A DNA stretch of 29,033 nt from a virus (Duplodnaviria; Heunggongvirae; Uroviricota; Caudoviricetes): IMG/VR virus record IMGVR_UViG_2896607866_000010. One strand, given 5' to 3'. Position numbers and translations under genes: made by a program. This document shows positions 19,887-25,993 of this stretch, one piece after another; position 1 is the first letter of the stretch, and the number at the start of each line of letters is the position of its first letter. Below the pieces are notes generated by a model. That model ran no database searches. It was not told the DNA's origin and saw only the letters and a program-made list of their open reading frames with translations.

Positions 19887-20633
19887 CTACTTAACAACCC
19901 TCGAATGGCTAACATTCGGACGCCAGCTCTCCCAGTTAAAATTCACCCAGCGCCCGCCGTTCATGACCATGCGATCCATCACCCGCTCGCCGAGCAATGT
20001 TTTCATCACCTCATAGTTCAGGTTTGTCAGCATCCCCACGCTGCGCATCGACGCTGTCCGGCGATCAACAATCTGGTGCAGCACCACCTGCTCGTTTTTC
20101 GTCTCGCGCTGAATGCCAATTTCATCAAGAACCAGCAGATCCACTTCGCACAGCTCCCGCAAAAATTTTTCGCCTGACTGCCCGTCGTCATAGCTGGCGT
20201 GCAGGGCGCTCATAACATCAGCCACGGTAACCACAATCACTGTCTGACCGTCTTTCAGCAGGCGATTCCCGATAGCTGCCGCTAAGTGATTCTTCCCGGT
20301 ACCAGGTTTTCCGCTGAACGCAAAATTTGTACACCCGGTCATCAGTTCATCGGCGATGGATTTCGCCTGGCTTAACGCGTATCGCTGGCCGTCGTTCTGC
20401 ACCTGGTAATTCGCAAACGAGCATTTACGGTGCAACGGCTGGATGCCTGAGCGATTCAGAATTTTTTCCACCCGCAACTGGCGATTCAGGCGGTTGATCT
20501 CCTCGCTACGTTTCTGGCCTTCAGCAAGTTGCCACTCGCGCCACTCCGCTACCGTTCTGAATGGGGCGGTTACATGTGGCGGGGTCAGTCGGCGGATGCG
20601 TTCCAAAACGCCGCCTGTCGCAATATTTTTCAT
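19887..20633 (-). CDS. DnaC-like replication protein / helicase loader (Rac YdaV-like AAA+ ATPase)
   Basis: 248-aa ORF with Walker A (GKPGTGKNHLAAA) and Walker B (LLVLDEIG) motifs. Confidence 0.75.
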   Translation of the reverse strand: MKNIATGGVLERIRRLTPPHVTAPFRTVAEWREWQLAEGQKRSEEINRLNRQLRVEKILNRSGIQPLHRKCSFANYQVQNDGQRYALSQAKSIADELMTGCTNFAFSGKPGTGKNHLAAAIGNRLLKDGQTVIVVTVADVMSALHASYDDGQSGEKFLRELCEVDLLVLDEIGIQRETKNEQVVLHQIVDRRTASMRSVGMLTNLNYEVMKTLLGERVMDRMVMNGGRWVNFNWESWRPNVSHSRVVK

Positions 20634-20639
20634 GGTCCG

Positions 20640-20960
20640 TTACCCCCTGAAGCCTGGCGGGATCGCACTGTCCGGCAACGAGACGGTGTTAACCTGTCGG
20701 AGCAACGTCTCAGGCCGAACACCTTTCGGCGCGAACAGGCCCTGGTATTCATTGGCGATGCTGTGTCGAATCACCTGCTCAGGTGTAAAACCCTGCTGAC
20801 GGAATTTTTCCAGTTCCCGTATCGCCCCGTTAGCGCCCTGCTCCGTTCGAATCGGTTTTCGCAATGCCTGTCTGAACCGGACCCACTCATGCCAGAGTGT
20901 TTCCGGCAACCAATCGGGCAGCTCAATAGCCTCCGGCTCGAATTTTTTAGACGCTCGTTT
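20640..20960 (-). pseudogene. YdaU-like replication protein, C-terminal fragment (gene split by IS911 copy 2)
   Basis: Open frame from the IS911 left junction to the TAA at 20640; in frame with the N-terminal fragment when the IS plus 3 bp are removed. Confidence 0.55.
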
Positions 20961-21032
20961 TGAAGTGGCACACTGAATTTGGCCACCTGAACAGAGGTGA
21001 TATGCTCACCTCAGAACAACACAGGTGCTCCA

Positions 21033-22201
<1,169 letters not shown>

Positions 22202-22287
22202 CCACTTCATTTTTGGCGAGGGGGATTTAGGGGGAGATCAGTATTTAGATCTTCCTCTTCCTCTGGTAACGCTTTTTGATCCGTTTG

Positions 22288-22308
22288 TGTAACGCTGGCA
22301 GCGTTACC
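22288..22308. repeat. 21-bp palindrome TGTAACGC-N5-GCGTTAC(C), copy 1
   Basis: Seen directly: gTGTAACGCTGGCAGCGTTACc, inside the ydaU-like N-terminal coding region. Confidence 0.8.
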
Positions 22309-22494
22309 TTTTCGTTTCAGTTCGCGTATTTTTGTTACTCGCTCGTTTGTAACCGCCCGTTTTTTAGAGCTTTTTCCGTTATGACGTTCAAAGTTAGGTA
22401 GAGAAAGCCCACCGTCATTTTCGACCAGCCATCCAACCTGAATTAACGCATCAGCAAAACCAGACATAAAAGTGATGCGATCTATTGCACTTTT

Positions 22495-22515
22495 TGTAAC
22501 GCCGCGAGCGTTACA
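22495..22515. repeat. 21-bp palindrome TGTAACGC-N5-GCGTTACA, copy 2
   Basis: Seen directly: TGTAACGCCGCGAGCGTTACA, inside the ydaU-like coding region. Confidence 0.8.
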
Positions 22516-22686
22516 ATCTGCATTACCGTCTATCATTTGTTGATCCGCCCATGCCCAGAAGCGAATAACCTTCCCTAATGCGGCATCTGGATCAATATTC
22601 AGAATCTCAGCAAGCCTGAATATTTCCGGCTTATCCGGCGTAATAACCTCGAGCTTTATCCAGTTTGAAGCCATTTGTTTTCACCT

Positions 22687-22707
22687 TGTAACGCTCGCAG
22701 CGTTACA
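22687..22707. repeat. 21-bp palindrome TGTAACGC-N5-GCGTTACA, copy 3
   Basis: Seen directly: TGTAACGCTCGCAGCGTTACA, just upstream of the ydaU-like start codon and abutting its SD. Confidence 0.8.
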
Positions 22708-22751
22708 TTTAACTGATACCGAACAAAACAATCCGGCACGATTAATTTCAA

Positions 22752-23174
22752 TCAATGCACTACGACAGAATCGCCGGGCGACCCACCACCGCTGAAATGT
22801 GCTTTCCGGTAAACGGCCTGGACAGCATCATCATGCGCATCAATTGCCGTACTCAACGCTTCCTGCGCCGCCAGTAATGCACGGCGTTCCAGGGTATCGA
22901 AGATACAGAGTCGGTGACGCAGCTCACGCGGAAGAATTGCCAGAACCGCAGGGATCAGTTTCTGAATTTTTTCCCTTTGCGCTTTCGTTTCACCTTTCAA
23001 CCAACGGTGATAGATATTCTGCTGATTGTTCCAGTCCTTGCCTGGTACCAGAGACAATTCGCCGCCCCCCTGCCGCAGATATTCTTCAGTAATTGCGTTA
23101 GCGACCCACGCCTGCCCTTTTTCGGCTGCCAGGGCTAACAGCACTGATTCGATGTGCTCATGCCTGATTTTCAT
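22752..23174 (-). CDS. ydaT: YdaT-like protein (Rac prophage toxin-like)
   Basis: 140-aa ORF MKIRHEHIESVLLALAAEKGQAWVANAITEEYLRQ... resembling E. coli YdaT as recalled; overlaps the ydaS-like 3' end. Confidence 0.6.
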   Translation of the reverse strand: MKIRHEHIESVLLALAAEKGQAWVANAITEEYLRQGGGELSLVPGKDWNNQQNIYHRWLKGETKAQREKIQKLIPAVLAILPRELRHRLCIFDTLERRALLAAQEALSTAIDAHDDAVQAVYRKAHFSGGGSPGDSVVVH

Positions 23175-23385
23175 GAATCACCTTCCCAGGTCGTTTTGCC
23201 TTACGATATTCGTCATAAACTTTGGGGTCGTACTGAAGTTCCCCGCCAGATGCCTCTTGCAGGCGCATCGCGCGACCTTCAGGAACCAGTTCCCCCCATG
23301 CAGCAATGCTTGCCAGCCTAACTCCTGCGGCATTGGCAAGCTTTGTTTTGCTGCCAAAAAACGCTATAGCATCAATTTTCAACAT
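23158..23385 (-). CDS. ydaS: YdaS-like Cro-type HTH protein
   Basis: 75-aa ORF MLKIDAIAFFGSKTKLANAAGVRLASIAAW...; divergent from the repressor gene. Confidence 0.6.
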   Translation of the reverse strand: MLKIDAIAFFGSKTKLANAAGVRLASIAAWGELVPEGRAMRLQEASGGELQYDPKVYDEYRKAKRPGKVIHENQA

Positions 23386-23461: not shown

Positions 23462-23869
23462 ATGAAAAACGAAACCTTCGGTGCTCGCCTCTTACATAGG
23501 CGTAAAAAATTAAAACTGTCTCAGGCCGCATTAGGTAAGCTGGTCAAAGTGGCTCACGTAACAATTTCTCAATGGGAAAGAGATGAAACACAGCCGGCGG
23601 GGAAAAGATTATTCGCACTGAGCCAAGCGCTTCAGTGCTCACCGACTTGGCTTCTTTTTGGGGATGAAGATAAACAACCAGGCGAACCGATCCCGGATAA
23701 TCAGCCAGCCATTCTGACAGAAGATCAAAAAGAGTTACTTCAACTGTTCGACGCACTGCCTGAGTCAGAGCAAAAGGCCCTGTTGTCAGAGATGCGTGCT
23801 CGAGTTGAAAATTTCAACAAACTTTTTGAAGAACTACTCAAAGCTCGCAAAAGAAGCGCAAACAAATAA
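23462..23869 (+). CDS. racR: prophage repressor, RacR-like (XRE-family HTH)
   Basis: 135-aa ORF; N-terminal HTH (LSQAALGKLVKVAHVTISQWERDETQP); divergent from the ydaS/ydaT-like genes as in the Rac immunity region. Confidence 0.65.
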   Translation: MKNETFGARLLHRRKKLKLSQAALGKLVKVAHVTISQWERDETQPAGKRLFALSQALQCSPTWLLFGDEDKQPGEPIPDNQPAILTEDQKELLQLFDALPESEQKALLSEMRARVENFNKLFEELLKARKRSANK

Positions 23870-24673: not shown

Positions 24674-25579
24674 CTATATTTCCAGACATCTGTTATCACT
24701 TAACCCATTACAAGCCCGCTGCCGCAGATATTCCCGTGGCGAGCGATAACCCAGCGCACTATGCGGATGCCATTCGTTATAATACTCGAACGCCTCTGCA
24801 AGGTTCTTTGCTGCCGTTAACCCGTCTGGTTTGGGCATGATACTGATGTAGTCACGCTTTATCGTTTTCACGAAGCTCTCTGCTATTCCGTTACTCTCCG
24901 GACTCCGCACCGCCGTGTTCTTCGGTTCAAGTCCCAACATCCGGGCGAACTGGCGTGTTTCATTAGCCCGGTAGCATGAACCATTATCCGTCAGCCACTC
25001 CACTGGAGACGACGGAAGATCGTTGCCGAAGCGGCGTTCCACCGCTCCCAGCATGACGTCCTGTACTGTTTCACTGTTGAAGCCGCCGGTAGTCACCGCC
25101 CAGTGCAGTGCCTCACGATCACAGCAGTCCAGCGCGAACGTGACACGCAGTCTCTCTCCGTTATCACAGCAGAACTCGAACCCGTCAGAGCACCATCGCT
25201 GATTGCTTTCTTTCACGGCCACTCTGCCTGTATGTGCCCGTTTCGATGGCGGTACAGCAGGTTTTCGCTCAAGCAACAGCGCATTCTGGCGCATGATCCG
25301 GTAAACACGTTTGGCATTGATCGCAGGCATACCATCAAGTTCTGCCTGTCTGCGAAGCAGCGCCCATACCCGACGATAACCATACGTGGGCAGCTCTCCG
25401 ATAACATGGTGTATACGGAGAAGCACATCCGTATCATCAGTGTGACGACTGCGGCGGCCATCCATCCAGTCATCGGTTCGTCTGAGAATGACGTGCAACT
25501 GCGCACGCGACACCCGGAGACAACGGCTGACTAAGCTTACTCCCCATCCCCGGGCAATAAGGGCGCGTGCGCTATCCAC
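24674..25579 (-). CDS. insD: IS2 transposase OrfB (InsD), copy 2
   Basis: 301-aa ORF, one amino-acid difference from copy 1 (H to Y near the C-terminus). Confidence 0.9.
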
Positions 25580-25902
25580 TTTTTTGCCCGTCCATATTCA
25601 ACGGCTTCTTTGAGGAGTTCATTTTCCATCGTTTTCTTGCCGAGCAGGCGCTGGAGTTCTTTAATCTGCTTCATGGCGGCAGCAAGTTCAGAGGCAGGAA
25701 CAACCTGTTCTCCGGCGGCCACAGCAGTAAGACTTCCTTCCTGGTATTGCTTACGCCAGAGAAATAACTGGCTGGCTGCTACACCATGTTGCCGGGCAAC
25801 GAGGGAGACCGTCATCCCCGGTTCAAAGCTCTGCTGAACAATTGCGATCTTTTCCTGTGTGGTACGCCGTCTGCGTTTCTCCGGCCCTAAGACATCAATC
25901 AT
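25537..25902 (-). CDS. insC: IS2 transposase OrfA (InsC), copy 2
   Basis: Identical product to the copy 1 InsC. Confidence 0.85.
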
Positions 25903-25993
25903 CTGTTCTCCAATGACTAGTCTAAAAACTAGTATTAAGACTATCACTTAAATAAGTGATACTGGTTGTCTGGAGATTCAGAGGGCCAGTCTA

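Follow-up and report, generated by a model that had tools for sequence, protein, structure and literature searches.

What are the three palindromes that recur, some 200 bp apart, in and just before the replication gene of a Rac-like prophage, and which protein reads them? The question is raised by a 29,033-nucleotide stretch of viral DNA (IMG/VR record IMGVR_UViG_2896607866_000010, Caudoviricetes), which is referred to here, at its whole length, as the window. An initial annotation had proposed that these palindromes, or dyads, are binding sites of a dimeric protein, either origin iterons or operators, and had named the product of the surrounding ydaU-like gene as one candidate. Our comparative evidence, which comprises selection at the DNA level, exclusivity to one gene, changes of the dyad with lineage, and joint inheritance in a cassette, supports this proposal. 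The palindromes are real and, judged from sequence comparison, are almost certainly the recognition sites of the prophage's own replication initiator. We also consider it probable that these cognate sites include, in the part of the gene that encodes a flexible linker, the core of a lambda-like origin, with the other sites serving auxiliary or autoregulatory roles.

A scan of the window that tolerated up to three mismatches found exactly three matches to TGTAACGC-N5-GCGTTACA, at 22288-22308, 22495-22515 and 22687-22707, and no further copy outside these positions, which bears out the earlier statement that the motif is absent elsewhere in the window. Shuffled windows contained a mean of 0.11 and a maximum of one dyad, and three were reached in 0 of 100 shuffles. 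The start-to-start distances are 207 and 192 bp, in agreement with the estimate of about 200 bp. Each site has the form (T)GTAACGC-N5-GCGTTAC(A), and its two inverted GTAACGC heptamers lie 12 bp apart, centre to centre. Perfect 8-bp arms had been ascribed to all copies, but they are present in copies 2 and 3 only; copy 1 (TGTAACGCTGGCAGCGTTACC) has perfect 7-bp arms and a broken outermost (eighth) pair. By chance, 2.9 copies of the heptamer GTAACGC would be expected in the window, and 12 are present; seven of these fall inside 22266-22706, and the other five correspond to the chance level. The minus strand carries the gene, which makes copy 3 the one upstream of it, whereas copies 2 and 1 lie within codons. 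The sites, with positions in the gene where they apply, are as follows:

22687-22707, dyad A (copy 3), TGTAACGCTCGCAGCGTTACA, with 9-bp arms and a 3-bp centre; in the intergenic region between ydaT and the initiator gene, its end overlapping the Shine-Dalgarno sequence
22520-22526, degenerate half-site that reads GTAATGC along the gene (one mismatch) and lies 12 bp upstream of dyad B
22495-22515, dyad B (copy 2), gene +160 to +180, codons 54-60 (C-N-A-R-G-V-T)
22288-22308, dyad C (copy 1), gene +367 to +387, codons 123-129 (G-N-A-A-S-V-T), in the predicted disordered linker
22266-22272, gene +403 to +409, exact half-site that belongs to cluster C, at a distance of 23 bp from the right arm of its dyad

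In the window, cluster B consists of the dyad and the one-mismatch half-site at 22520-22526 (GCATTAC as written on the given strand), and cluster C of the dyad and the exact half-site at 22266-22272. The latter had been noticed at about 22266, and relatives carry one at the same position. A second half-site, suggested near 22346, has been dropped: TGTAACCGC, at 22348-22356, is one base too long, and relatives have nothing equivalent to it. The Shine-Dalgarno sequence AAGGTG (22682-22687, minus strand), which is followed after 7 nt by the ATG at 22674-22672, overlaps the end of dyad A, so that copy 3 does adjoin it as the initial annotation had described. The placement in and upstream of a ydaU-like gene is also correct, with the reservation that only the C-terminal domain of the product is YdaU-like.

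Homologous loci were compared, 27 from genomes and 10 from phages, and the codon test used 45 in-frame sites within the gene from 25 loci. The Asn codon is AAC in all 45 sites, against a background of 55% elsewhere in the same genes, and the Val codon is GTT in all 45, against 31%. The codon before AAC is always NGT, though it encodes Cys, Gly, Ser or Arg, and the fourth codon is NGC in 42 of the 45. Two sites (L015 and L031) have the dyad in another reading frame, where it is read K-V-T-x-x-A-L, and in L252 the identical 19-mer GTGACGCTCTCAGCGTCAC is used in two frames, at +149 (G-D-A-L-S-V-T) and at +361 (V-T-L-S-A-S). Together the sites give the consensus nGTAACGC(T)nnn(A)GCGTTAC(A). Among 50 distinct 21-mers, 333 of 350 arm pairs equal the consensus, and the 17 departures comprise 14 mismatches and three G.T pairs, with no compensatory change. 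Because all 17 departures are uncompensated, it is the sequence of the arms that is conserved and not merely their pairing. Judged from these alignments, the sites are under purifying selection as DNA, not as protein.

The same dyad stands at the same gene positions in Enterobacterales, in phages of Xanthomonas, Pseudomonas and Ralstonia, and in the isolate genome of the planctomycete Novipirellula, and so spans the Gammaproteobacteria, the Betaproteobacteria and the Planctomycetota at two or three fixed positions. It is also found on short metagenome-bin contigs assigned, more weakly, to the Ignavibacteriae and Saccharibacteria. Most relatives in the Enterobacterales have a dyad upstream of the gene, at -32 to -44; nearly all relatives have one at +148 to +161, and at +337 to +413 relatives carry a dyad or a cluster of up to five half-sites. 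Relatives have an exact half-site at +149, where the window holds the degenerate one at 22520-22526. The half-sites are arranged, for example, as +149>, +161>, +173< and as +368>, +380>, +392<, +415<; their steps are 11-12 or 22-23 bp, that is, about one or two helical turns. One locus (L017) has, in the region from +148 to +200, a dyad encoding the protein loop S-N-A-D-S-V-T at +148 and an extra half-site (S-N-A) at +193.

The dyad is also exclusive to one gene. A scan of viral contigs that was independent of any protein, asking for two exact dyads 165-195 bp apart, returned at least 120 loci; every locus listed encodes the N-terminal domain of the initiator (N-domain; 30-100% identity), and the dyads stand at about -40, +150 and +350. 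Among the matches listed, 1.16 Mb of flanking viral contig sequence contained no genuine extra dyad, the sole apparent one being the upstream copy moved by a 1.27-kb insertion. The complete phages vB_EcoS-673R7 (37.8 kb) and TL-2011b (44.8 kb) have no other sites at up to two mismatches, and we noticed neither a further repeated motif nor a further candidate origin in either genome. A generic, abundant repeat, which the initial annotation had named as the finding that would speak against its view, is thus not what we see: a REP/BIME-like element was rejected, there being no copies elsewhere in the window, in the two phage genomes or in the flanking contigs. A protein-alignment search of viral contigs gave only near-identical E. 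coli prophages and added no diversity, and a plasmid collection gave two matches, one circular phage genome and one uninformative composite. A 41-kb circular phage replicon of Pusillimonas carries the dyads, and there the initiator and a DnaC-like gene are the only annotated replication module.

Distant lineages replace GTAACGC by other half-sites, and all copies within one genome change together. The dyad is GTCCGC-N7-GCGGAC in epsilon15, SPN1S and phiPSA1 (+65 and +344 or +365), GTAGACG-N6-CGTCTAC in Ralstonia phage Raharianne (+153, +166 and +369) and CTAACG-N7-CGTTAG in two planctomycete bins; GTCACA-N7-TGTGAC is found in a Vibrio phage (+358) and a Paraglaciecola bin (+160), as a single copy per genome. 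Dyads were also predicted from protein motifs before the DNA was seen (GDALSVT to give GTGACGC..GCGTCAC, and GHALIVT to give GTCACG..CGTGAC), and the contigs agreed. Phages of one host genus may carry different dyads, as do Ralstonia phages YL1 and Raharianne, and the same is true within the enterobacteria (Salmonella phage epsilon15 and E. coli phage TL-2011b). Since phages of one genus differ while phages of distant hosts share a dyad, these sequences indicate that the reader is encoded by the phage and tied to the N-domain.

The comparison with the Rac prophage of E. coli K-12 points in the same direction, and it defines one further element:

22254-22752, minus strand, 499-bp specificity cassette, from -78 to +421 of the gene, containing the intergenic dyad, the N-domain region and the linker cluster

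A blastn comparison with K-12 Rac gives 92% identity up to the ydaT stop codon and again from +422, and no match inside the cassette, which is the only segment without homology to K-12 Rac. On this alignment, the sites and the N-domain have been swapped as one unit. The K-12 cassette has no GTAACGC dyads; it contains five 12-nt direct repeats, GC(A/T)GATGTT(C/G)AA and ACAG(A/G)TGTT(C/G)AA, at ydaU +144, +229, +388, +421 and +433. It should be mentioned that these repeats (L120, BW2952, 2043-2343, equal to ydaU +144 to +444), three of them clustered at +388 to +444 and two dispersed, are candidate iterons of the known origin oriJ, and that their layout parallels that of the GTAACGC clusters.

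The most likely binder, as far as sequences can tell, is the initiator's own N-terminal domain, a predicted winged helix, because it alone is universal among the loci, because the known site of YdaT differs, and because the K-12 ydaT gene is not accompanied by dyads. A tblastn survey showed that, among the proteins searched for, only the N-domain is common to all motif-bearing loci; neighbours of the RacR-like, YdaS, YdaT, DnaC-like, DUF977 and zinc-ribbon types are absent from most of them. The initiator gene and its parts in the window are:

22210-22674, minus strand, 5' part of the initiator gene, codons 1-155, truncated by an insertion sequence (IS)
22375-22674, minus strand, region coding for the N-domain (residues 1-100), predicted winged helix
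20961-22209, plus strand, IS3-family insertion sequence with open reading frames (ORFs) at 20997-21335 and 21362-22201, which splits the initiator gene after codon 155
20640-20960, minus strand, remaining 3' portion of the initiator gene, which encodes a C-terminal domain with 83% identity to K-12 YdaU and a tail resembling that of DnaT (...PDSAIPPGFRG)

The 5' part is listed as an ORF at 22207-22674, whose stop codon is supplied by the end of the IS. The initiator is therefore dead in this window, because the IS splits it, and the replication system is a relic; all of its sites are intact. Intact alleles of 260-262 residues occur in other E. coli genomes (including L001 and L002), and all three dyads are kept there. 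The intact homologue matches PHROG 2509, 'replication initiation protein', with an E-value of 1.9e-87 over residues 1-260 (profile 1-277), a name that is an annotation label, so that the function is predicted only; the C-terminal domain matches 'O-like' PHROGs. No Pfam match was obtained for the intact protein even at E-values up to 10, and neither NCBIfam nor Pfam has a family for the N-domain. Assignment to Phage_rep_O (PF04492, the lambda O family) was rejected, with no match at E-values up to 10, and so was DUF1376 (PF07120), which likewise gave no match, whereas K-12 YdaU scores 2.7e-26. With K-12 YdaU the protein shares only the C-terminal 120 columns (hhalign, 83% identity, probability 100%). 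A search with the N-domain among 1.84 billion representatives gave 5641 clusters at 50% identity, 2993 of them at an E-value of 1e-10 or lower; the members are mostly labelled 'hypothetical protein'.

AlphaFold2 predicts a winged helix at residues 11-95, disorder at 96-160 and a helical (three-helix) C-terminal domain at 165-240. The N-domain model (predicted template-modelling score 0.73) has helices at 16-25, 29-48, 61-68 and 73-80 and a hairpin at 84-91. Dyad B encodes a low-confidence loop between helices 2 and 3 of this domain, and dyad C encodes the disordered linker; according to the model, the loop and the linker would be places where the protein tolerates a dictated sequence. In relatives of the Klebsiella, Enterobacter and Pantoea types, 11 additional residues are inserted into the N-domain loop (A1 columns 53-63), and this is the region in which L017 has its dyad at +148 and its extra half-site at +193. 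Many E. coli alleles of 374-380 residues (P0011-P0058) have the same N- and C-terminal domains with an insertion of about 115 residues past the acidic tract, just downstream of cluster C (A1 columns 170-305), so that the linker is an insertion hotspot.

The IS3-family element is flanked by an apparent 3-bp TTT target duplication, and its insertion point lies about 60 bp past the last half-site, where a purine-rich tract ends. A second insertion sequence, presumably IS2-like, occupies 24674-25947 in the early-left prophage region and has two minus-strand ORFs of 301 and 136 residues; the window is IS-rich.

How would such sites work? The following scheme is the one that we consider probable. 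Dimers of the N-domain of a 260-residue, two-domain initiator (a predicted N-terminal winged helix, a disordered linker and a YdaU-like C-terminal domain) would occupy each dyad. Cluster C, at 22266-22308, would be the core of the prophage origin, and the low-GC purine tract beside it would be opened. The C-terminal domain would then deliver the DnaC-like YdaV together with DnaB, and dyads A and B would be auxiliary: they might bind dimers cooperatively or form loops across some 200 bp, they might let the initiator regulate its own read-through transcription, or they might do both. Two further features enter this scheme:

22210-22277, minus strand, low-GC purine-rich tract coding for LPEEEEDLNTD..., directly 3' of cluster C, its far end cut by the IS
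19887-20633, minus strand, ydaV, DnaC/IstB-like ATPase, presumed helicase loader and partner of the C-terminal domain

In a set of 23 loci, GC content falls to its minimum, 13 points under the average of the locus, at 30-90 bp 3' of the linker dyad; purine bias peaks in the same tract, where the coding strand reaches 81% purine.

The closest model is phage lambda, whose origin has four 18-bp inverted-repeat iterons, each bound by one O dimer, and an adjacent 39-bp AT-rich region that is opened by the O-some (PMC6022878). The N-terminal domain of O binds DNA and its C-terminal domain binds the loader; origin deletions map to +407 to +468 of gene O, and in lambdoid O genes the N-terminal half and the iterons set origin specificity while the C-terminal half sets loader specificity (PMC6022878). 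The system described here resembles lambda in that the candidate initiator sites are inside the initiator's own gene, are inverted repeats of about 18-21 bp suited to a dimer, have their main cluster in the part encoding the flexible linker (+368 to +409, compared with +407 to +468 in lambda) and are followed by a tract of lower GC content. The division into an N-terminal DNA-binding and a C-terminal loader-binding domain is also shared, though here it is predicted only, and the N-domain and sites behave as one exchangeable cassette. It differs from lambda in that the N-domain is not Phage_rep_O and has no Pfam match, that one cluster lies in the region coding for the DNA-binding domain and one upstream of the gene, that the partner is a DnaC/IstB-like ATPase and not lambda P, and that selection for AT-richness in the adjacent tract is not demonstrable.

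Several observations weigh against this scheme. The low GC content beside cluster C is explained by the coding of poly-Glu (LPEEEEE), and the tract uses GAA and GAG as the rest of the gene does (p = 0.69), with no synonymous bias towards AT. The case for the purine tract as an unwinding region is weak, because the tract codes for LPEEEEE with unbiased GAA/GAG usage. The two or three clusters are 182-264 bp apart, unlike the tandem iteron arrays of characterised origins, including the four of lambda. Helical phasing between the dyads is absent once duplicate distances are removed. A promoter scan found no sigma-70-like promoter near dyad A, so that, as an operator, this dyad could only control read-through transcription. 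Two relatives, L023 (64% identity) and L255, yielded no motif-like dyad. For all members of the family, moreover, the sites are identified as cognate by sequence comparison, and the choice between origin and operator roles is likewise one that we infer.

One further reading, which we regard as tentative and somewhat doubtful, makes of the dispersed layout an architecture of its own. A widespread winged-helix initiator family would use a 14-nt code at two fixed places in its gene, one of them within the stretch that encodes its DNA-binding domain, with a third at the ribosome-binding site in enterobacterial prophages, and its dimers, on sites some 200 bp apart, would loop or wrap the gene, thereby coupling initiator synthesis, action in cis and firing; the code would have been kept from the Enterobacterales to the Planctomycetota and reprogrammed by concerted changes. 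The architectural difference from lambda may or may not be mechanistically meaningful.

It is unlikely that the dyads are purely autoregulatory operators or roadblocks, by which the initiator would block read-through from an early promoter while the true origin lies elsewhere. Inverted repeats do act as operators for Rep dimers in iteron plasmids; here dyad A runs into the Shine-Dalgarno sequence, the sites are scattered instead of forming an array, and selection on the AT-rich tract is not demonstrated. The universal sites, however, are the two clusters within the gene, and many lineages, in which the initiator gene touches or overlaps the adjoining one, lack the upstream dyad. No other candidate origin was noticed in either complete phage genome, cluster C is placed as the lambda origin is in gene O, and the cassette structure fits the swapping of origin specificity. 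It may be added that in several distant relatives, as in epsilon15 (L035) and Vibrio phage 1.211.A (L036), a C-5 cytosine methylase gene lies directly upstream of the initiator gene and overlaps its start.

That a different protein binds the dyads, be it YdaT, YdaS/Cro, RacR, a DUF977 winged-helix protein or a host factor, appears very unlikely. Several DNA-binding proteins are indeed encoded beside the initiator gene:

22752-23174, minus strand, YdaT
23158-23385, minus strand, Cro/YdaS-like protein
23462-23869, plus strand, RacR-like repressor

A weak YdaT-box-like sequence also lies about 30 bp from dyad A. The YdaT operator determined by footprinting, however, is (A/T)TGATT-N6-AATCAA (PMC9986795, PMC11879457), which differs from GTAACGC-N5-GCGTTAC; since YdaT is missing from most loci as well, this candidate, which the initial annotation had put forward for binding assays, was rejected. 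YdaS, RacR, DnaC-like and DUF977 proteins are similarly missing from most motif-bearing loci, and the ydaT gene of K-12 Rac is 92% identical in DNA and has no dyads beside it. Against a different binder stand also the different dyads in phages of one host genus or group, and the same dyad across at least two phyla. As to YdaT itself, GTGATTCATGAAAATCAG at 23164-23181 (minus strand), across the ydaT start codon, is a near-copy of the K-12 'YdaT-box' ATGATTCATGAAAATCAA (PMC11879457), and ACGATTAATTTCAATCAA at 22738-22755, at the ydaT stop codon, is the weak operator match mentioned above (10 of 12 positions to TTGATT-N6-AATCAA).

It is hardly credible that the dyads act as RNA or cruciform hairpins, either as mRNA stem-loops for translation or stability or as an antisense terminator. 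Hairpins are plausible on physical grounds: each copy folds to -10 to -12 kcal/mol (z-scores -3.2 to -5.1), copy 3 adjoins the Shine-Dalgarno sequence, and copy 1 is terminator-like on the antisense strand, which we judge incidental; a T-run is found at that copy only. Against a hairpin stand the invariance of the arms (no compensatory change and only three G.T pairs among the 17 departures), the lone and directly repeated half-sites beside the dyads, spaced by about one turn of the helix, the joint change of all copies in a genome and the lack of a relevant Rfam match. Finally, there is next to no chance that the dyads arose by accident or only because a peptide, N-A-x-x-V-T, is repeated in the protein. 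Copies 1 and 2 do both encode xNAxxVT, a conserved peptide motif, but in the aligned genes the synonymous-site and frame data exclude this, for the synonymous positions are fixed, the nucleotides stay while the flanking amino acids vary, the dyad is also met in other frames and, as copy 3, outside coding sequence, and the protein segments concerned are a loop modelled at low confidence and the disordered linker.

The interpretation as initiator sites can also be set beside other known systems. The K-12 Rac prophage has an active origin, oriJ (PMC3945230, PMC11014345). The prophage in the window shares with it the gene order racR, ydaS, ydaT, initiator, ydaV, C-terminal 120 residues that are 83% identical, and DNA that is 92% identical on either side of the cassette; it differs in that the K-12 N-domain is DUF1376 and is accompanied by direct repeats instead of GTAACGC dyads. 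With the Rep proteins of iteron plasmids (RepA, pi, TrfA, and staphylococcal RepA_N, PDB 4pta) it shares a winged-helix initiator, here predicted, repeated sites, and a mixture of inverted and direct half-sites at steps of about one helical turn, and an operator role of the inverted repeat before the gene is plausible by the same comparison. Unlike those systems, it has no sequence homology to the Reps, its sites lie in coding sequence, and there is no tandem array of 17-22-bp repeats.

A last resemblance concerns DnaT (primosomal protein I). The final 19 or so residues of the initiator (…VNTVSLPDSAIPPGFRG) resemble the C-terminus of host DnaT (PDB 2ru8, 6aep and 9zbt; E-values 0.04-0.12), with the shared tail ...VSxPDxxIPPGFRG; the tail is encoded at 3686-3740 of L001 and at about 20640-20700 of the window, minus strand. 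The N-domain relatives in TL-2011b and epsilon15 carry the full Pfam domain DnaT (PF17948) instead. The match of the window type is weak (the E-values just given, and an NCBIfam score of 16 bits against a cut-off of 201), and DnaT is no sequence-specific origin binder. The tail hints that the phage initiator mimics a contact of DnaT.

That lambdoid phages have their origin within the initiator gene and can exchange its specificity as a cassette is textbook knowledge. We found no description in the literature of the N-domain family, of the GTAACGC dyad or of the dispersed layout in two or three clusters, and the published oriJ papers concern the K-12 type. In other words, the principle is known, and the protein family and its recognition sequence appear to be undescribed.

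If the interpretation is right, it would provide a recognition sequence and a likely origin for a large family of phage and prophage initiators that has no Pfam model, and with them a rule by which the origins of many temperate phages could be found by sequence alone. The lineages with altered dyads would constitute a natural series of initiator-site specificities, differing by single half-site changes, in which DNA reading by a winged helix could be followed. The gene would also be a clean case of dual coding, in which the sequences of a protein loop and a linker are dictated by the protein's own binding sites. As for the Rac-like prophage in the window, it would retain the intact sites of an initiator whose own gene has been broken by an insertion sequence.

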